This document shows, piece after piece, positions 15,592-63,595 of a stretch of DNA of 64,000 nucleotides. The position numbers and the translations under genes were made by a program. The stretch comes from a phage: sequence record PZ452579.1, one strand, 5' to 3'. The stretch's first letter is position 1. Each line of letters opens with the position of its first letter. A model generated the notes under the pieces. That model was not told where the DNA came from. It saw only the letters and a program-made list of their open reading frames with translations, and did not search any database.

Positions 15592-15637
15592 AACGTTTTA
15601 TTCATTCCATTTGGTTGATATGAGTATAGTACCATTA

Positions 15638-15853
15638 TCAGTGTTGATTGTAAACAGCTTTTTCTACACTTTTAACGTAATCAGTGTAGTCTTCCTGTTC
15701 ATACGAGTGTAAGGCCAAGAATGTGGCTAATAGTTCATTATAGACTAAAGCCTCACGCTCACGTTCTGCCTCTACTACGTTCTGAAGATTATGGCTCATA
15801 TCATTCCTTATAACTATCAATGTAGTCCTGTATGTCAAAGAATGACATTTCAT
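15638..15853 (-). CDS. hypothetical early protein
   Basis: 71-aa ORF; overlaps next ORF, true start may be internal. Confidence 0.4.
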   Translation of the reverse strand: MKCHSLTYRTTLIVIRNDMSHNLQNVVEAEREREALVYNELLATFLALHSYEQEDYTDYVKSVEKAVYNQH

Positions 15854-18085: not shown

Positions 18086-18169
18086 TTTATTTCTCCAATT
18101 TGGTTGTTTTGTTTTGATAGGTCTATAATATCATGTTTGAAGCACATGTAAACTGTTTTGTGAGAAAAA

Positions 18170-19939: not shown

Positions 19940-20386
19940 TTAGTAACTCTGCAGAATGAATTTGAAATTATCTGCCAGAAGACGGTTCATTTCAGTGAGT
20001 GTTTGATATTCTGATGTATGATTGCGAGTGAATGCCAGAGCCAATTGTCCTTTACCGTAACCAGTAGTCAGGGGTTTCATGTTCTTAGCTGCAACAAAGA
20101 TTACATCATATTCAATATTGTTAGTGCCCATGGTACGGGCTAGTTGCGAACGGCCTTGACGAATGTGAGAAAGAATTGCATCCAACCCTTGTTTAGAACG
20201 TTGACGTCCTACAAAGAATCGTGCTGCTACTTGTCGCCAATCAGATGAACCTTTAACAAAGAAGTAAAAACCTTCACGAGAACGAAACTCTTTAGAAACT
20301 TCAGAACCGTATTCACCATTACGAACTACTGCAACAACTTCACCACCAACTGCCAGAAGGTCTTTACGAGTTAAATATTTGGACAT
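19940..20386 (-). CDS. ndd: nucleoid disruption protein Ndd
   Basis: 148 aa; ...[32 protein letters not shown]...[32 protein letters not shown] matches T4 Ndd. Confidence 0.9.
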
Positions 20387-20462
20387 ACTAATTTCCTCAA
20401 TTGATTAATGTTTTTGTAATCCATGAGAGCATTATACTCTGCTCTCAAGAGTTTGTACAATT

Positions 20463-28493: not shown

Positions 28494-28538
28494 GTTGTCT
28501 CCTCGTTATGAAGGTATTCTATCATCCGAAATCTAAAG

Positions 28539-28556
28539 CAAAAAGGGCCGAAGCCC
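28539..28556 (-). terminator. rho-independent terminator
   Basis: GGGC-ttcg-GCCC hairpin followed by TTTTT on minus strand. Confidence 0.5.
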
Positions 28557-28982
28557 TTATTTAAATTTAATTTTCTGAAGTGCATCAATTGCAGCCAAAC
28601 GCCCTTGTTCACTTTTAACTGTAATGACTACATCGCCTGATACGATCACCGAACCATCAACAAATTCTATAGAGCCTTTTTTGAAATCGACAGCTGTATC
28701 TGGTTCCGGAACTTCTTCAAAGAATTTAAATTCTGCACCATAAAGCAGAATATCACCTTGCATACTATGAATAGTTCGGCCGTAATCGCCTACGGCTTCT
28801 ACAGCAATAATCGAAACGCCGTAACCAATCATCTCTTCCACAATAAAATCTTTGGACAATAAAGTAGTATGCAGATTAGTATTAAGACGTTTACCAGTCG
28901 TATTAAGAATTCTCAAGAAATTATCTTCCTGTCCTTTGATAATACGATATTTCTTACCAACTTCAAAACCTTTAAAAGCCAT
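28557..28982 (-). CDS. hypothetical protein (39-adjacent; goF-like by position)
   Basis: 141-aa ORF. Confidence 0.5.
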   Translation of the reverse strand: MAFKGFEVGKKYRIIKGQEDNFLRILNTTGKRLNTNLHTTLLSKDFIVEEMIGYGVSIIAVEAVGDYGRTIHSMQGDILLYGAEFKFFEEVPEPDTAVDFKKGSIEFVDGSVIVSGDVVITVKSEQGRLAAIDALQKIKFK

Positions 28983-29166: not shown

Positions 29167-29595
29167 TTATTCCTTAAAATGTGCTTTCAACATTTGATAC
29201 AAAGACCATGCCTGGTCATTATTTTTGATAGTAATCGTCATCACAGGAAATTCAGACAATTCATCAAGTTCACCAGAATCTTGCTCTTCGGACGCTTGAT
29301 ACGGATTTCCAACTTCGTCAAAGAACTCTGCTTCATTCGTGGAAAGCCAGATAAAGTTTTCATCAAGGATATCACCGCCTGTTGCGTATCCAACCATGCC
29401 AGTAGATGTCACAATTTTAGTAGGACGTCCAAGATGGTCAACATCTAATACTTTAAATGGTTCCATGCCAAGACGTCGTGCATAAATCCCATTATCAGTG
29501 TGGTCTTTAATAAACTCTTCTTGGGCACGTTTATCTTTAAATTGGTACCATGAGTTAACGCGGAATTTATTAGCCATTAGTAAGTTTCCTTCCAA
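29167..29595 (-). CDS. hypothetical protein
   Basis: 142-aa ORF. Confidence 0.5.
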
Positions 29596-29849
29596 TAAGT
29601 TGTACCGTTTTCAGTGATTTCACGGAAGATACCATAGATAGGCATTTCATCACCGAGTTTTTCGTAAACGTAAACCACTTCGGTGTAGCATAAAAATTCG
29701 GTCCAGTTTTTCTGTACAACAACTAAATCAGGATTAAACAGAACATCTTCAAACTCATCGATGTTTGAATCAGTAGTTACGTTTTTAATGATTTGACGTT
29801 TCATAATATTCTCCTCTTGTTTTGATAGGTCTATAGTATCATAGACCAT
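29577..29849 (-). CDS. hypothetical protein
   Basis: 90-aa ORF. Confidence 0.5.
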
Positions 29850-29861
29850 AGTTGTTGTACA

Positions 29862-30386
29862 TCATTTTAGCAAAATAAAATCAACTTGTTCTGCCAATGA
29901 ACGTCTGAACATTAATTGACAACTTCCGAGGATGAAATCAGGTGCTTCATAGACCGCGATGTAGTATCCTTTAGCTTTCAAGAGTTCAACATCCACCTGG
30001 TCATCAAACCATGCATAAACCGCGTCAACACTTTCAAATCCAAAATAGAACCCTTGAGCCCAATCTTCACTCAATTCAAATGTATGCTCAATTCTATAGT
30101 ATCTTAAGATATTTTGTTCAAGGAGTTTGTCTTCATTTACTGTAGGACGATTAGGGACATTATAGTTGTCGCCGTGATGGTAGAAGTTACCTGAGAGTAT
30201 TCCATGCTTATCAAGGAACTCCCATGTTTCTTCAGAGTTGTCGGTGCCCGACCAACCGTATGGCGAACGAGGTTCTTTATTCCAAGAGGTTTCCCAAATT
30301 CTGACGGCTTTACCGTCTTCGATAGCAATTCCTGGTAATGATTCACGTTGAGTACAAAAACTACGTTCTACGCGGTAAACTAACAT
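29862..30386 (-). CDS. hypothetical protein
   Basis: 174-aa ORF with own early promoter and SD inside a hairpin. Confidence 0.55.
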   Translation of the reverse strand: MLVYRVERSFCTQRESLPGIAIEDGKAVRIWETSWNKEPRSPYGWSGTDNSEETWEFLDKHGILSGNFYHHGDNYNVPNRPTVNEDKLLEQNILRYYRIEHTFELSEDWAQGFYFGFESVDAVYAWFDDQVDVELLKAKGYYIAVYEAPDFILGSCQLMFRRSLAEQVDFILLK

Positions 30387-30412
30387 ATTATTCTCCTCTG
30401 GTTGATATGGTT

Positions 30413-30441
30413 ATAATATCAAAACCAGAGGAGAAGTAAAC
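30413..30441 (-). promoter_or_regulatory. T4-type early promoter nested in SD-sequestering hairpin
   Basis: minus strand GTTTAC, 17 nt, TATTAT; 11-bp inverted repeat CTCCTCTGGTT (30393..30403) / AACCAGAGGAG (30423..30433) flanks the -10 and includes the SD. Confidence 0.55.
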
Positions 30442-30445
30442 AACT

Positions 30446-30865
30446 TTATGCGAAAGCAGCTGGGCTATATTTTTTAATTTGGAATTCAGGAACTACCATG
30501 AACTGTCCAGCGAAAACGATGTTATAAAGCTTAACACCATCTTCTACCCAACGGTCGCTAATAAATCCGGCGATTTGCTTAGTTTTCCACGGTGTTCCAT
30601 CAGTTGCCGCAGCAATAGTAAATTCATGGTCTTTTTCAACAGAAACTGATCTGCATAGTCCCCATTTGAACGCTTTTTCTTCTGGTTCAATGAATTGGCT
30701 TGAGACATAACCAATGTTACCATCAGCGTCACGAACTTTAACTTCGTTACGTCCAAAAACCGGATCACTCACAGAAAGAACTTCAACCAACTTCCCGGCA
30801 ACTTTAGAGCGAGAAGCAACGGATACATATACGTAATCACCTGTAGAGAGATTTACAATATTCAT
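30446..30865 (-). CDS. paralog A of a three-member tandem family (unknown function)
   Basis: 139 aa; C-terminal GFISDRWVEDGVKLYNIVFAGQFMVVPE shared with neighbours. Confidence 0.6.
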   Translation of the reverse strand: MNIVNLSTGDYVYVSVASRSKVAGKLVEVLSVSDPVFGRNEVKVRDADGNIGYVSSQFIEPEEKAFKWGLCRSVSVEKDHEFTIAAATDGTPWKTKQIAGFISDRWVEDGVKLYNIVFAGQFMVVPEFQIKKYSPAAFA

Positions 30866-30874
30866 AATAATTCC

Positions 30875-31330
30875 TTAAGCTTTACGAGGAGACACGTAGC
30901 GAGTGATTTCAGATTCTTTAACAACTCGGAAGTCACCTAAGAATACGATATTGTATAACTTTTCACCATCTTCAACCCATTGGTCACTAATGAAGCCACA
31001 CATAGTATCAGTTTTGCTTGGATAACCGTATTCATCGATGAAGTCAAATTCTTTATCAGTCTGGAATTCAACACCTTTGCAAAGGGCCCATTTGAACTGT
31101 ACATTAGGTTCAGTAGAAGCAAAATGAGCGCTCACATGAGTTTCCAAGAATTTAGGACTTACGTAAGCGTACTGAGTTTCAGTTTTTCCAGAACTAGGAA
31201 TGATTCGAACTTTAACTTCTTTAACACGACCAGTACCATTAGTACGAAGTCCTACCACTTCAACTAGACGACCTGCAGCTTTAGAACGAGATGCAGACGA
31301 TACACGCTTAATTTCACCAATAGTAATCAT
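30875..31330 (-). CDS. paralog B of tandem family
   Basis: Start set at internal ATG (MITIGEIKRVSSASRSKAAGRLVEV...) aligning with paralog A; track ORF extends to 31393 across a promoter-like element. Confidence 0.55.
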   Translation of the reverse strand: MITIGEIKRVSSASRSKAAGRLVEVVGLRTNGTGRVKEVKVRIIPSSGKTETQYAYVSPKFLETHVSAHFASTEPNVQFKWALCKGVEFQTDKEFDFIDEYGYPSKTDTMCGFISDQWVEDGEKLYNIVFLGDFRVVKESEITRYVSPRKA

Positions 31331-31392
31331 AATTTCTCTCTCTTTGTTTAAATTGAATTCACTATACTCCATCCATCCTTGGATGTACAACA

Positions 31393-31887
31393 TTAATTAA
31401 GGATATTAACCACAGCACTACGTGGAACTACACTAAAATCACCTGCATGAACAACGTTCAGAAGTTCAACACCGTCTTCAATCCACTGATCGGTTACCCA
31501 TCCACTCACTGGTCCTGCGAACGGACGTCGAATTGAAACAGCTTTACACAACAAATCAGTAGGCTCAATAGGCTTAATCAGAGTACCGTACATACAAGCG
31601 ATATCCATATCAATACAGATGTCTTTAACGGGTTCTACTTCTTCAATCAACAGTTCAAAGTCGGTGTTTGGAAGGGCGGTAGTAGAAATTGTACCGTATG
31701 AATTTTTAATTTCTAAGAATAACCAAGGGCCTTCAGCTTGTTTGATGAAGTTAACAATAGTGAAACTATTACCTTGAGTGGCGCCTAAAATTTCACAAAA
31801 CTTTTCATACGCTCGCACTGAAGCACCGTACCAGTTGATTTGTTTTTCGTCTTTCAGGATGTAAGTAGCCGTAGTATTGATATTCAT
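31393..31887 (-). CDS. paralog C of tandem family
   Basis: 164 aa; C-terminal GWVTDQWIEDGVELLNVVHAGDFSVVPR. Confidence 0.6.
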   Translation of the reverse strand: MNINTTATYILKDEKQINWYGASVRAYEKFCEILGATQGNSFTIVNFIKQAEGPWLFLEIKNSYGTISTTALPNTDFELLIEEVEPVKDICIDMDIACMYGTLIKPIEPTDLLCKAVSIRRPFAGPVSGWVTDQWIEDGVELLNVVHAGDFSVVPRSAVVNILN

Positions 31888-31918
31888 AATGTTTTTCCTG
31901 TTTGGTTAAGATAGAAAG

Positions 31919-31948
31919 ATTATACTCCAACCATCCTTGGTTGTAAAC
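31919..31948 (-). promoter_or_regulatory. T4-type early promoter upstream of paralog C
   Basis: minus strand GTTTAC, 18 nt, TATAAT; spacer contains palindrome CAACCA-aggA-TGGTTG. Confidence 0.5.
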
Positions 31949-31953
31949 TGGTT

Positions 31954-32631
31954 TTATCGCTGTTTTACACTTAACGGGTCAGGATTCTCAGGGACATCTT
32001 CAAGGCCAAGCGCATAACGCTGAGCATATTTTAACATCAAAATATCTTTAGCACAATCATGAATACTATCATGGGCAACGAATCCTTTTAGCGTACCCAT
32101 CGGTAATGGACACATACTTAATCCTCGTGTCAACGAGTAAGCTTCGATTGCCGTACGAATATCGCGTTGAGCCCAGAATTTAACCGGTTCTAATTTATCA
32201 GTATCAATCTCTGGTTCAAGAACACCTTCATCACGATAGAGGTCACGAATCAAATCGACCAATATCGGGAAGTCAAAGCTCATACCACGGCACCACATCT
32301 GTGATTTCCATTGGTCAACTTTATTAGCTCGACAATAATCTAAAAAGATTTTAATGCCTTCAAGCGTAGTGACATCGTCTTCAGACGGAGCCAAGTTTTT
32401 ACGCGCTTCAGTCGATTGTTCTTTCCACCATTTCATAGTGGATTTAGCGAAAACTCGCTTCCCTTTCTGAGAAGCTAAATTAAATTTAATTCGCTTACCT
32501 CGTTGAACAAGTTCTTCAAATGATTCAACAACTTCAGGGTCAGAATTATATGCAATAACCGCAAGGTCGATAACAGCCGCTTTTGATGTATTGCCGAATG
32601 TTTCAAAATCTATAATAACATCAGTGCTCAT
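31954..32631 (-). CDS. dexA: exonuclease A (DEDDh family)
   Basis: 225 aa; MSTDVIIDFETFGNTSKAAVIDLAVIAY... matches T4 DexA. Confidence 0.9.
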   Translation of the reverse strand: MSTDVIIDFETFGNTSKAAVIDLAVIAYNSDPEVVESFEELVQRGKRIKFNLASQKGKRVFAKSTMKWWKEQSTEARKNLAPSEDDVTTLEGIKIFLDYCRANKVDQWKSQMWCRGMSFDFPILVDLIRDLYRDEGVLEPEIDTDKLEPVKFWAQRDIRTAIEAYSLTRGLSMCPLPMGTLKGFVAHDSIHDCAKDILMLKYAQRYALGLEDVPENPDPLSVKQR

Positions 32632-32640
32632 AATTTTCTC

Positions 32641-33954
32641 TCAAATAAAATGGACGTCAAAACGACCACGAGTCGTGCCGACATACAATAACTGTTTAGC
32701 TAATTCTGAATCAGCATAATGGATACACGGTGTATAAACAAAGGCCGTGTCAACAGACATACCCTGGGCCTTATGGAAGGTTGATACCGGTAGTGCCTTC
32801 ACCTTAGTGAACATACGTTTAGCATCCCAGAATTCGCTCCATGGGGCTTTACCACCTTTATTCCAGAATTTGTATGTTTCTGCGGTCTTAGCCAAAAACA
32901 AATTGAATTTATAAAGCTCTTCTTCAGAAGAAATAACCTTTATATCTTCGCGGATGTATTCTTCATCATCGCCATATGTTTCTACTGTAAGATTCCAGTA
33001 TCGTATCATATACTCGCCTGAAACACCACGTGCTTTAACGAATGTAGACGTTTCTACAGCATCTCGAATACGAACGAATTGCCCGTTATTGAAAAGCATT
33101 TCGGTCATATTTTTACCATCTAGCTTATATGTCTTAGTAAATGGCTCTTGTAGAACAATGACTTCGTCTTTAATAAATGGTTTTTCTGTTTCAAAAAGTT
33201 TTCGTCGAATAATTGAATTTAACTTGTCCACCGACTTATTTGTGAATGCCATCATTCGATTTTCGAAAAGGTCTTCAGGAGTTTTAACGACGTTAAAATA
33301 GTTCATCATATACGATTTAAGGTCTGTATATCCATGAACACCGTGCCCATCAACTACTTTATCGTAAATCCATTTGCCATTACGAATATCAGTCGCAACA
33401 TCAATAATTGGTGCATTGCTACGTTTAACTTCTGTAAGGTCGCATTGCACGAAGTCTTTGTGAGTGAAGAAAGGACTTAGATACGCAGTTGATTCGCCTG
33501 GGTCTACCGGTCGAATCTGGCATCGGTCACCAATTCCAATTACTGTGCACCATTTAGGGATACTAGCTAACATTATTTTAAACAGAGAACGGTCGCACAT
33601 TGACGCTTCATCAAATAACAGTACACGACACAAGGCTAAGTCGGGAACCTTTTTCTGTTCAAACAATACGTTTTCTTCGTATGTAGTTGGGTTGATTTTA
33701 AGAATGCTATGAATAGTCGATGCTTCTTGACCCGCAAGTTTGCTTAGAACCTTTTTAGCAGCATGTGTAGGGGCTGCTAAAATAATACCTGATTCTCCAG
33801 AAGAAATAAGGGCTTCAACGATGAATCTAGTAAGGGTTGTTTTACCTGTACCAGCGGGACCATTAATAGTTACGTGATGTTTCTTTTCTTTAATAGCGTT
33901 CATAACAACGTTGAAGGCGTTTTTCTGGCCTTCAGTCAAATCATCAAATGTCAT
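32641..33954 (-). CDS. dda: Dda DNA helicase (SF1B)
   Basis: 437 aa; MTFDDLTEGQKNAFNVVMNAIKEKKHHVTINGPAGTGKTTL... matches T4 Dda. Confidence 0.95.
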   Translation of the reverse strand: MTFDDLTEGQKNAFNVVMNAIKEKKHHVTINGPAGTGKTTLTRFIVEALISSGESGIILAAPTHAAKKVLSKLAGQEASTIHSILKINPTTYEENVLFEQKKVPDLALCRVLLFDEASMCDRSLFKIMLASIPKWCTVIGIGDRCQIRPVDPGESTAYLSPFFTHKDFVQCDLTEVKRSNAPIIDVATDIRNGKWIYDKVVDGHGVHGYTDLKSYMMNYFNVVKTPEDLFENRMMAFTNKSVDKLNSIIRRKLFETEKPFIKDEVIVLQEPFTKTYKLDGKNMTEMLFNNGQFVRIRDAVETSTFVKARGVSGEYMIRYWNLTVETYGDDEEYIREDIKVISSEEELYKFNLFLAKTAETYKFWNKGGKAPWSEFWDAKRMFTKVKALPVSTFHKAQGMSVDTAFVYTPCIHYADSELAKQLLYVGTTRGRFDVHFI

Positions 33955-35773: not shown

Positions 35774-35830
35774 TTAGGTTTCTCCTGTGGTTGATAAAGG
35801 TATAGTATCATCGTCTGTAGAGTTTGTACA

Positions 35831-36412
35831 CTAAAAATTCAACATTTTCAAATGAATGATTTTGTATAATCGAGATAAAGGGTCATATTCTAAGTCTTCA
35901 ATTTCCACAATCTCAAATCGAGAGATGCCTGAGACCATGTACTCTTGTTCAGATTCAATCATATCTAGGACGTCAACACGCGTTTCTTCCATAACATGCT
36001 TAGGGTTCTTTCCGGCAAGTACAATGTTAATCATGTTTTGGTAGTAATCAAAAATGAATGGAGCATTCCTGAGACTAAGAATAGTGTACGTCTGATATTC
36101 CCATCTCCCGGAGAATTGACGAGCTGTACTGAAATCAGTTGTGAACGATGTTACTCGTCCAGGAGACCAATGGCATCCAACAGAAAGAAGGGAAAGACGT
36201 TCTACTTCTTCTGGAGTTACACCACGGTAGAGTTCTACTGGTACTGTAGAAGTCATATGCTTACGAACAAGATGGTCTAATTCATAGTGGAAATCCGGGT
36301 CTTCCTTAGAATCGGTGCAAGCCCAGAGAATGTTTTGTTCTTGGCGGGTGAATTTGCTATCAATCAGATTTGTTAGGTATTCGCGTTCTTGAAGTTCAGA
36401 TTGACATGTCAT
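35831..36412 (-). CDS. modB: ADP-ribosyltransferase ModB
   Basis: 193 aa; LYRGVTPEE...EQEYMVSG; parallel motif layout to ModA. Confidence 0.8.
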   Translation of the reverse strand: MTCQSELQEREYLTNLIDSKFTRQEQNILWACTDSKEDPDFHYELDHLVRKHMTSTVPVELYRGVTPEEVERLSLLSVGCHWSPGRVTSFTTDFSTARQFSGRWEYQTYTILSLRNAPFIFDYYQNMINIVLAGKNPKHVMEETRVDVLDMIESEQEYMVSGISRFEIVEIEDLEYDPLSRLYKIIHLKMLNF

Positions 36413-42518: not shown

Positions 42519-42589
42519 TTCAATTTCCTCTGTAGTTGATAGAAAGATAGTAACACAGTATGCGGTGCTTGTAAACAGTTATTTTAAAA

Positions 42590-42778: not shown

Positions 42779-43092
42779 ATTTCCTCGCAAAATGCCCATT
42801 CAGCGTGATAAACTGTAGCGCCTTTAGTATCATTCATTTGAACTACGTCTACCGGAGAAATTACTCGATAGAGACGTGGTTCACCTCCATAAGAGCGTGC
42901 TGCTCGTCCTGCATAAATCTTTGCTAAACCGATATCTTCAGTAAAGAATACACGATCCAAGTTTTTCTTACGTCCAGTTTCAGACAGAACTCCTGTTTCC
43001 TCAGGAGGACAAAGCATGTTTTCGATGTTAGCTGAACTACTTGAACCGTGATAAAAAATCTTAAATTCTGCTTTACAATCGATGGTTTTCAT
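42775..43092 (-). CDS. hypothetical protein
   Basis: 105-aa ORF; FYHGSSS motif; own promoter-in-hairpin upstream. Confidence 0.5.
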   Translation of the reverse strand: MKTIDCKAEFKIFYHGSSSSANIENMLCPPEETGVLSETGRKKNLDRVFFTEDIGLAKIYAGRAARSYGGEPRLYRVISPVDVVQMNDTKGATVYHAEWAFCEEI

Positions 43093-43118
43093 TTTGTTCT
43101 CCAGTAGTTGATAGGTCT

Positions 43119-43147
43119 ATAATAACACAACTACTGGAGAAGTAAAC
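43119..43147 (-). promoter_or_regulatory. T4-type early promoter nested in SD-sequestering hairpin
   Basis: minus strand GTTTAC, 17 nt, TATTAT; 12-bp inverted repeat CTCCAGTAGTTG (43099..43110) / CAACTACTGGAG (43128..43139); 3' arm contains SD GGAG. Confidence 0.55.
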
Positions 43148-55968: not shown

Positions 55969-56049
55969 TTAATTTCCTTTAGACGAGTTATTGTCTTTTG
56001 TTTGTTGATGAACTTATTATACTCCAAATGGGACCGAAGTCCCATTGCT

Positions 56050-56418
56050 TTAATTACCAATTGTATATTTTGCTTTCAAAGTCCAGTCATCTTTCTGTTT
56101 AAAAGAGATAACTCGGAAGTTATTAGTCAGGCTAAATAGATCTTCACGAGCAGAGTCTTCAATAACAATCAATCCCCAGTCTTCAAGCAACTGGGCAATC
56201 GAATCACGTCGCTGATAGTCTTCACCGTCAATATCAACCTGACGTCCATCCATACGCAACATTTCTTTAAAGTGGACGATATAGTACTTACCTTGCTTTT
56301 GGAGGATATGACAAGACTGGTAAAGGACTTTATCCTTGTTATTAGCGATGCCCATACGGGTCAAAGTCTCTTTGACTTTCAGAAAATCTTCAGGGTTCTT
56401 CAATTTAATTTCAATCAT
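56050..56418 (-). CDS. regA: translational repressor RegA
   Basis: Start at ATG 56418 (MIEIKLKNPEDFLKVKETLTRMGIANNKDKVLYQSCHILQK...) gives 122 aa as in T4. Confidence 0.9.
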   Translation of the reverse strand: MIEIKLKNPEDFLKVKETLTRMGIANNKDKVLYQSCHILQKQGKYYIVHFKEMLRMDGRQVDIDGEDYQRRDSIAQLLEDWGLIVIEDSAREDLFSLTNNFRVISFKQKDDWTLKAKYTIGN

Positions 56419-63348: not shown

Positions 63349-63392
63349 ATTATTTCCTCATTAGTTAATTCATTCTATCATCCGTTTATAAA

Positions 63393-63422
63393 GCAAAAAA
63401 AAAAGGAACTCCGAAGAGTTCC
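63393..63422 (-). terminator. rho-independent terminator upstream of gene 47
   Basis: GGAACT-cttcgg-AGTTCC hairpin followed by a 10-T run on minus strand. Confidence 0.7.
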
Positions 63423-63595
63423 TATCCACATAGTACACCGTACAGAGGCTCATTTGAACTTTTAAATCGAATGGGCTTGTATGTAATAGTTCCTTCGGCT
63501 TTAGCTTTATCATAAGACTCTTTAAAACGTCTCATTCTTTCTGCTTTGCCTTTACGGATTTTATCGAAATTTTCAGAAGTCGGGATGTTCGTCAT
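63422..63595 (-). CDS. small basic protein (not in ORF track)
   Basis: 57 aa MTNIPTSENFDKIRKGKAERMRRFKESYDKAKAEGTITYKPIRFKSSNEPLYGVLCG; ends at the terminator. Confidence 0.45.
   Translation of the reverse strand: MTNIPTSENFDKIRKGKAERMRRFKESYDKAKAEGTITYKPIRFKSSNEPLYGVLCG

Follow-up and report, generated by a model that had tools for sequence, protein, structure and literature searches.

Three adjacent genes on the minus strand of a 64,000-nucleotide stretch of phage DNA, here called the window, are related to one another, and upstream of two of them a palindrome with a six-base-pair stem and a four-nucleotide loop is embedded in a promoter. The two palindromes differ by a paired substitution, and the initial annotation took this as an argument that the palindrome is under selection, as either a DNA operator or an RNA hairpin. 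We asked what these palindromes are, whether their pairing is maintained, and in which molecule it would act.

The three genes belong to the MotB family

The window was placed in the RB69 group (Mosigvirus) by megablast, with 99% identity to phage F27 and 96.5% to RB69; identity to RB69-like phages overall is 96.5–99%. According to the RB69 annotation, the minus-strand order of the region is dda, dexA, motB.1, motB, RB69ORF010c ('similar to motB') and motB.2. The three genes under study are as follows.

31393..31887, minus strand: gene C, motB.1, 164 aa; annotated as motB.1 in RB69
30875..31330, minus strand: gene B, motB, 151 aa, with its ATG at 31330; the same start is annotated in RB69
30446..30865, minus strand: gene A, second motB copy and homologue of RB69ORF010c, 139 aa, 9 nt past the B stop codon

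Membership of the MotB family was judged by the Pfam PF17613 gathering threshold of 25 bits, and all three products score above it: B with 132.4 bits (E 1.8e-38), A with 76.3 bits, and C with 35.8 bits over residues 85–159. Protein B also matches PHROG 1671 (E 7e-65), and protein C matches PHROG 2333 (E 9e-83). A and B are 44% identical across their full length (E 8e-33), whereas the similarity of C to A and B is confined to about 36–80 C-terminal residues (E 2e-10 and 2e-11); its C-terminal domain is of the MotB type and its N-terminal domain is unlike theirs. The three genes are therefore related through a common C-terminal core, as had been noticed from the sequence. They do not amount to a simple tandem triplication, A and B being full-length paralogues and C, which is motB.1, matching them in the C-terminal domain only. 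Structure prediction for protein C without an alignment was too poor to use (pLDDT 39), but its relationship is settled by sequence and profile homology, and the folds are already published.

A longer, 172-aa form of B, with an open reading frame start at 31393, is probably an artefact, since RB69 has a stop codon closing the extension; it is also disfavoured because the extension would translate the promoter. At the A–B junction, which has a 9-nt gap, an AAGGA Shine-Dalgarno sequence overlaps the B stop codon. No promoter was found between A and B, and the junction aaagcttaaggaattattATG is kept in every relative examined. Translational coupling of A and B is plausible from this arrangement.

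The paralogy of MotB and MotB.1 and the extra copy in RB69 were already known in 2021 (PMC7827196): MotB and MotB.1 have a common C-terminal domain and may stem from a duplication, and in RB69 motB is present twice and motB.1 once, alongside a 29-aa peptide (PMC7827196). Within the published MotB/MotB.1 family of the Tevenvirinae (Son, Patterson-West et al. 2021, PMC7827196; Kim et al. 2025, PMC12152347), B is MotB, its N-terminal domain KOW-like and its C-terminal domain OB-like; A is the additional MotB copy of the RB69 type, and C is MotB.1, carrying the family's C-terminal domain; an LSm-like N-terminal domain has been predicted for MotB.1 (PMC12152347). Nothing substantive differs in the window, where motB.1 is intact (164 aa) but split in the RB69 reference record. 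The gene motB.2 and its own cassette stand before motB.1 in T4 and after the second motB copy in the window.

Both palindromes occupy promoter spacers

The initial annotation had placed the palindromes at 31928..31943 and 31370..31385, and a pattern search found both there. Each lies within a promoter and within one copy of a direct repeat.

31928..31943, minus strand: stem-loop of cassette C, CAACCA-AGGA-TGGTTG, then GGAG (31925–31928), which overlaps the last stem base
31919..31948, minus strand: promoter of C, with -35 GTTTAC (31943–31948), a spacer that contains the palindrome, and -10 TATAAT (31919–31924)
31370..31385, minus strand: stem-loop of cassette B, CATCCA-AGGA-TGGATG, then GGAG (31367–31370)
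31361..31390, minus strand: promoter of B, with -35 TTGTAC (31385–31390) and -10 TATAGT (31361–31366)
31898..31945, minus strand: copy 1 of a 48-nt direct repeat, comprising promoter, stem-loop and start of the leader
31340..31387, minus strand: copy 2 of the 48-nt direct repeat, the recombination partner in motB.1-deletion variants

The palindromes are indeed promoter-embedded, each occupying the spacer between -35 and -10. The promoter of C, GTTTAC-N18-TATAAT, matches the sigma-70 consensus at 11 of 12 positions when scored as TTTACA-17-TATAAT, in agreement with the canonical early promoter that had been assigned to this gene; it is an annotated promoter in phage SA79RD and recurs unchanged in more than 100 phage records. 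The promoter of B, TTGTAC-N18-TATAGT, scores 9 of 12, and relatives have GTTTTAC or TATAAT variants of it. Both promoters are 31–32 nt upstream of an ATG that has a preceding Shine-Dalgarno sequence. The two copies of the direct repeat are 75% identical and spaced 558 nt apart; as both palindromes fall within it, the upstream cassettes of B and C are paralogous. When the 64 kb were searched for CANCCAAGGATGGNTG with two mismatches allowed, these two palindromes were the only matches (0.13 expected).

The paired substitution is genuine: pair 3 of the stem is A-T in one cassette and T-A in the other, fully compensated. Given three substitutions in the 27-nt unit, a compensated stem change has P ~0.01, which is suggestive only. 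Palindromes with a 6-bp stem and a 4-nt loop number 43 in the window against 22 ± 5 in shuffled sequences, and a single one on its own is unremarkable. As RNA, the B and C hairpins fold with -6.9 kcal/mol (z about -1.5), but 17–18 of 200 shuffled sequences fold as well, and neither hairpin reached thermodynamic significance against the shuffles. Cassette B has a competing fold in which the -35 pairs with the -10 region (-7.5 kcal/mol).

No U-tract follows either stem (the next nucleotides are GGAGUAUAAU or GGAGUAUAGU), and a terminator scan was blank at both palindromes. Classical intrinsic (Rho-independent) termination is therefore unlikely, and this reading was rejected. An Rfam scan of 29500–32700 at E up to 1 returned only a sub-threshold chance match to Y_RNA.

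The cassette precedes unrelated genes in other genomes

BLAST searches with the 39-nt C cassette gave matches at two to four places per Mosigvirus genome and also found copies in Dhakaviruses; short cassette queries gave two to five matches per Mosigvirus genome. In all, at least 768 records of the collection searched are similar to this locus. In Mosig- and Dhakaviruses the cassette, which we term RB69-type, also precedes an nrdC.4-like gene and two other genes. Salmonella phage SHP1 and phage Bp7 have it before an nrdC.4-like gene, and phage moha has two such cassettes ahead of adjacent genes of the nrdC region.

A scan whose pattern placed no constraint on the stem yielded 24 distinct homologous copies. 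The inner stem, CCA/TGG, and the loop are invariant among them, a part of the set having been gathered with a pattern that fixes the loop and the -10. The stems fall into three haplotypes (CAACCA/TGGTTG, CATCCA/TGGATG and CTTCCA/TGGAGG), all paired at both variable positions, and no uncompensated change was found at these two pairs in the 24 copies. Across the set, 95% of cells are paired, compared with 87% in shuffles and 12–51% in slid controls. In 7 of the 24 copies, RB69's own motB copy among them, the pair that closes the loop is A·C, and two loci (L014 and L029) have an altered GGAG after the stem. The variation of only two pairs probably reflects very few evolutionary events.

Both haplotypes of the window occur at nrdC-region loci elsewhere, where they precede unrelated genes. 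The difference between the B and C stems was therefore inherited from the cassette family, and is not a compensatory change made in place.

Pairing is maintained in a sister cassette

The motB promoter of T4, T6, GiZh, Bp7, ESCO10, A2 and several uncultured genomes contains a different hairpin, which encloses the -10. The T4 motB cassette reads GTTTAC AAACTCT TGGGACCA gagtataa TGGTCCCG. One cassette of this type is present in the window.

20431..20460, minus strand: sister cassette, T4-motB type, upstream of a 148-aa open reading frame (19940–20386)

This copy has the -35 TTGTAC and a stem, TGAGAGCA/TGCTCTCA, around the -10 (loop GAGTATAA), followed by GGAUUACAAAA; as RNA it folds with -10.2 kcal/mol (z -2.5). 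In the Tequatroviruses GiZh and A2, an RB69-type motB pair stands behind a T4/Dhaka-type cassette.

Copies of the T4-type cassette were collected with a pattern of the invariant flanks, in a scan that covered IMG/VR. The 23 distinct sequences obtained precede at least 12 different genes. In the stem 99.5% of cells are paired, compared with 81.6% in shuffles and 36–47% in slid controls, none of 500 shuffles reaching 99.5%. Both-sided changes were seen at seven of the eight pairs, and the seven covarying pairs make up at least nine haplotypes at the 12 or more loci. One-sided changes were all G·U or U·G when read on the sense strand, and A·C did not occur. An unrelated giant-virus contig that gave a single match to the pattern showed no pairing and serves as a negative control. 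G·U pairs confined to the sense strand point to a structure in that single strand rather than an operator. Where the stem lies with respect to the promoter varies from lineage to lineage.

Recombination between cassettes and loss of motB.1

Four relatives, phages NHEP36, JK42 and JK45 and the metagenome locus L026, have no motB.1, and in each of them a single chimeric cassette joins dexA to motB. The crossover in NHEP36 lies to the left of the stem, with C-type sequence through the -35 and then a B-type stem. JK42 has its crossover inside the stem-loop, in the central block, which gives the mismatched stem CAACCA/TGGATG. The crossover in JK45 and L026 lies to the right of the stem, so that a C-type stem is followed by a B-type leader. 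The repeats thus served as crossover sites that removed (or inserted) motB.1 in natural isolates.

JK42 is a viable phage with an A·A mismatch in its stem. Among about 250 matching phage records it is the sole full-length hybrid of the CAACCA/TGGATG type, and the reciprocal hybrid was not found in them. Non-compensatory changes in related phages had been named beforehand as evidence against selection, and they do occur to a limited extent, as this hybrid stem and the seven A·C closing pairs. Selection on pairing agrees with the paired substitution, with the 24-copy set and with the covariation of the sister cassette; the A·C pairs and the JK42 mismatch speak against it.

A RegB-like motif adjoins the hairpin

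In T4, the motB mRNA is cut in vivo in GGAGUAUAAAA, which is the minimal RegB/S1 substrate on motB RNA (Durand et al. 2006, PMC1702504). It follows the T4 hairpin directly. The RegB/S1 consensus consists of an unpaired GGAG and an A-rich heptamer, GGAGAAUAAAA / GG*AGRAYARAA (PMC1702504; review PMC3014915). A motif homologous to the T4 site is found 3′ of the hairpin as GGAGTATAAAA in T4, GGAGTATAAAT in RB69 motB, and GGAGTATAAT (C) and GGAGTATAGT (B) in the window; copies of the sister cassette have GGA(G/U)NAYAAA at the homologous place. Over the variable positions of the consensus (4–11), T4 motB matches 8 of 8, RB69 motB 7 of 8, and C (GGAGUAUAAUC) and B (GGAGUAUAGUG) 6 of 8 each, both with the GGA core; only the T4 site is proven, and A-rich, -10-like sequences, middle promoters included, resemble this consensus by nature.

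The first G of the motif in the window is the last base of the stem. The motif doubles as the -10 hexamer and is therefore absent from the promoter's own transcripts. RegB requires no sequence 5′ of GGAG, and so the hairpin lies outside its recognition site. The homology of the motif in RB69-like phages to the proven T4 site is a new lead, with cleavage itself putative.

Pairing most likely acts in read-through RNA

The cassettes have consensus promoters, are dispersed before unrelated genes and keep their pairing through compensated changes. Relative to the promoter's own start site, the 5′ arm of the T4-type hairpin and the whole of the RB69-type hairpin lie upstream, so that as RNA the hairpin can be present only in transcripts that come from further upstream. 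The stem starts shortly after the stop codon of a co-directional open reading frame, at a median of 7 nt in the RB69 type and 12 nt in the T4 type (nearly all copies). The position of the hairpin upstream of the start site, together with the one-sided changes that are G·U on the sense strand only, points to read-through RNA as the selected molecule. From these sequence comparisons the selected structure is most likely one of RNA transcribed into the cassette from the preceding gene, which would be dexA for cassette C and motB.1 for cassette B.

The palindromes are thus probably stem-loops of modules of about 50 nt, of the PeSL (promoter-early stem-loop) type, that act as read-through RNA structures at the boundaries of transcription units. 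The hairpin would mark such a boundary in either or both of two ways, by attenuating read-through and by capping the upstream message at its 3′ end, and the embedded promoter would restart transcription for the next gene. The GGAG-UAUAA motif may supply the cut that makes the upstream 3′ end. A literature search found no usable maps of T4 transcript 3′ ends or start sites.

A more specific form of this proposal, which we put forward tentatively and consider unlikely as it stands, is that the cassette class is a three-part insulator acting at the RNA level, in which an early promoter is combined with a covarying hairpin and a RegB/S1 cleavage motif. Cleavage of read-through early transcripts at GG^AG, just 3′ of the hairpin, would leave the upstream message with a hairpin cap that protects the upstream fragment. 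The downstream gene's read-through copy would be marked out for degradation, and each gene would then be expressed from its own promoter only. In the RB69-type cassette one set of nucleotides would do double duty: in DNA they would be the -10 hexamer, and in RNA they would supply the A-rich half of a RegB site.

The palindrome might instead have no function of its own and travel with the duplicated promoter cassette, the compensated difference between copies going back to one templated event that recombination later spread among them. Quasi-palindrome correction and gene conversion are well documented in T4 mutagenesis. Such an origin fits the RB69-type stems, in which two pairs vary and the haplotypes are common to several loci, as few events would leave them; it also fits the weak thermodynamic signal, the excess of small palindromes in the window (43 against 22 expected), and the tolerance of A·C closing pairs and of the mismatched stem of JK42. 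Nevertheless we regard it as improbable. At least nine haplotypes at seven covarying pairs, without A·C and at 12 or more loci, are hard to obtain in the sister family without selection, and there is one hybrid stem in about 250 phage records although crossovers in the 10-nt central block should make them.

Of the two possibilities raised by the initial annotation, operator or RNA hairpin, the hairpin is favoured by these data and the operator is not. As an operator, the dyad in the spacer would bind a dimeric phage or host protein that controls the early promoter, for example in autoregulation by the MotB family. The dyad between -35 and -10 is perfect, its inner stem and loop are invariant among homologous copies, and MotB is a DNA-binding protein (PMC6070864, PMC7827196), but PMC7827196 describes its DNA binding as non-specific and unrelated genes follow the same cassette. 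The sequence of the sister stem drifts while its pairing is kept, with one-sided changes that are G·U on one strand only, and the placement of the stem relative to the promoter varies by lineage; we therefore consider an operator very unlikely. Selection of the stem-loop mainly as a recombination device, a structure-prone exchange site for gain and loss of accessory genes, is likewise highly doubtful, for although three classes of crossover in or beside the cassette gave natural phages without motB.1, and a PeSL crossover in RB49 lies within the loop and mini-circles were found (PMC2839356), the crossovers described here are spread over all three shared blocks, as plain homologous recombination predicts, and the G·U bias on the sense strand is left unexplained.

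Significance

The finding in itself matters little, since MotB/MotB.1 paralogy and promoter-embedded stem-loops are both in the literature. What the analysis adds is modest. The covariation is now quantitative, and with the G·U bias it suggests that PeSL stems are selected as single-strand structures, most likely of RNA. A clean natural series in four phage genomes or contigs, which between them show three crossover positions, records the removal of motB.1 by recombination between cassettes, and JK42 provides a ready-made stem-mismatch mutant. Finally, the proven RegB site of T4 motB belongs to such a cassette, which connects two literatures without mutual citation and offers a possible, testable function for the hairpin.

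Comparison with known elements of T4-like phages

Several T4 genes, namely e, soc, 49 and I-TevI, have hairpins that sequester the Shine-Dalgarno sequence and contain an internal promoter (review PMC3014915). The cassette of motB.2 in the window is of this design.

30386–30441: motB.2 cassette, with the 5′ arm within the promoter spacer, the -10 inside the loop and the Shine-Dalgarno sequence covered by the 3′ arm

The B and C hairpins, unlike these, make no contact with the downstream Shine-Dalgarno sequence or start codon. Their stems fall short of the ribosome-binding sites, and the sequestering mechanism is therefore inapplicable to them.

The palindrome cassettes are instead copies of a known element of T4-type phages, the PeSL (Arbiol et al. 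2010, PMC2839356; Comeau et al. 2014, PMC4122927). Like PeSLs, they have an early, sigma-70-type promoter in the gap after a co-directional gene (-35 TTTACW/TTGACA, about 17 nt, -10 TAYWAT), before an open reading frame with a Shine-Dalgarno sequence. Their stem-loop is within or abuts the promoter, lying between -35 and -10 in B and C and over the -10 in the copy at 20431–20460, and G-T pairs are tolerated. The module is repeated, with many copies per genome that adjoin accessory genes, and when two of them recombine the intervening gene is deleted or exchanged, as seen here in JK45, L026, NHEP36 and JK42. Arbiol et al. noted the G-T pairs, measured promoter and terminator activity, demonstrated recombination between copies, mapped a crossover in RB49 within the loop and detected mini-circles (PMC2839356). 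The T4/PST pair and vibriophages were later added to the phages with PeSLs (Comeau et al. 2014, PMC4122927), and PeSL-like repeats at the internal-protein loci of T-even phages go back to Repoila et al. 1994, as cited in the PeSL papers (PMC2839356, PMC4122927).

The window's cassettes differ from published PeSLs in several respects. Their stems are short (6 bp) and AT-richer, whereas those of the RB49 and phi1 PeSLs are polyG/polyC. Measured promoter and terminator activity is published for the RB49 and phi1 PeSLs only. Neither covariation analysis nor RegB appears in PMC2839356 or PMC4122927, and the RB69-type copy with its AGGA loop, together with its spread through Mosig- and Dhakaviruses, is an addition to the element described in those two papers.

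A promoter hairpin covering the Shine–Dalgarno sequence of motB.2

Inspection of the region upstream of motB.2 revealed a promoter combined with a long perfect inverted repeat, and a second cassette of the same design was found elsewhere in the window.

30386-30441, minus strand: motB.2 promoter cassette, -35 GTTTAC, 13-bp perfect inverted repeat
43090-43147, minus strand: second Shine–Dalgarno-sequestering cassette of motB.2-like design, GTTTAC TTCTCCAGTAGT...ACTACTGGAGAA, then ATG

In the motB.2 cassette the 5′ arm of the repeat (30423-30435) occupies the promoter spacer, the loop contains the -10 sequence TATTAT, and the 3′ arm (30391-30403) covers the Shine–Dalgarno sequence GAGGAG. Its predicted fold has an energy of -23.9 kcal/mol (z -6.5); that of the cassette at 43090-43147 is -21.1 kcal/mol. 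Transcripts from the motB.2 promoter itself would lack the 5′ arm, and in read-through RNA the ribosome-binding site of motB.2 would be masked. The design is retained in T4, Dhakaviruses and Kanagawaviruses, with arms that differ in sequence but are compensated. In phage SA79RD the motB.2 cassette is annotated as a terminator.

Related loci lacking or disrupting motB.1

Shigella phage JK42 is a natural isolate without motB.1, and its sole dexA-motB cassette (locus L113, 1500-1530) has a mismatched hybrid stem, CAACCA/TGGATG. JK42 is therefore a ready-made strain for testing stem function.

The motB.1 gene is intact (164 aa) in the window and in the other motB.1-carrying Mosigvirus loci examined. 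Comparison of the RB69 reference locus (AY303349; L001, 1913-2409) with window 31393-31887 showed two single-T insertions in RB69, which divide motB.1 there between an ORF of 132 aa and RB69ORF012c, of 29 aa. The 'category 3' peptide of 29 aa discussed in PMC7827196 is thus a frameshift fragment of motB.1, arising from either mutation or sequencing error.

Hairpins and early promoters across the window

Compared with dinucleotide shuffles (22.4 ± 4.9), the window contains about double the number of perfect palindromes that have a 6-bp stem and a 4-nt loop (43, both strands). A stem-loop is present at only a minority of the early promoters.

1423-1451, 15626-15655, 18125-18153, 35802-35831 and 42547-42576, minus strand: examples of early-type promoters
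20431-20460, minus strand: T4-motB-type cassette, -10 enclosed by the stem TGAGAGCA/TGCTCTCA, followed by GGAUUACAAAA

Most minus-strand early-type promoters have a TG-type extended -10 with TAYTAT, and most share (c)TATCAAC, a block of about 7 nt 3′ of the -10. This pattern is replaced by GAGTATAAT in the cassettes upstream of motB (B) and motB.1 (C) and in the 20431-20460 cassette. The latter, which lies upstream of a 148-aa ORF (19940-20386), belongs to a dispersed covarying family whose members precede 12 or more genes in other Tevenvirinae.

Hairpins with a UUCG loop occur at the following sites.

56015-56050, minus strand: stop codon, then hairpin GGGAC-UUCG-GUCCC, then ATTT GGAGTATAAT
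28500-28560 and 63370-63430, minus strand: terminator/middle-promoter composites, UUCG-loop hairpin and T-run

The GGAGTATAAT block at 56015-56050 is the same as that in cassettes B and C, and no clear -35 was found at this site. In the two composites a canonical terminator hairpin leads directly into a sequence that looks like a MotA-box middle promoter (TGCTTTA, 12 nt, TAGAAT), an arrangement similar to that of the 'PmSL' elements described by Comeau et al. 2014.
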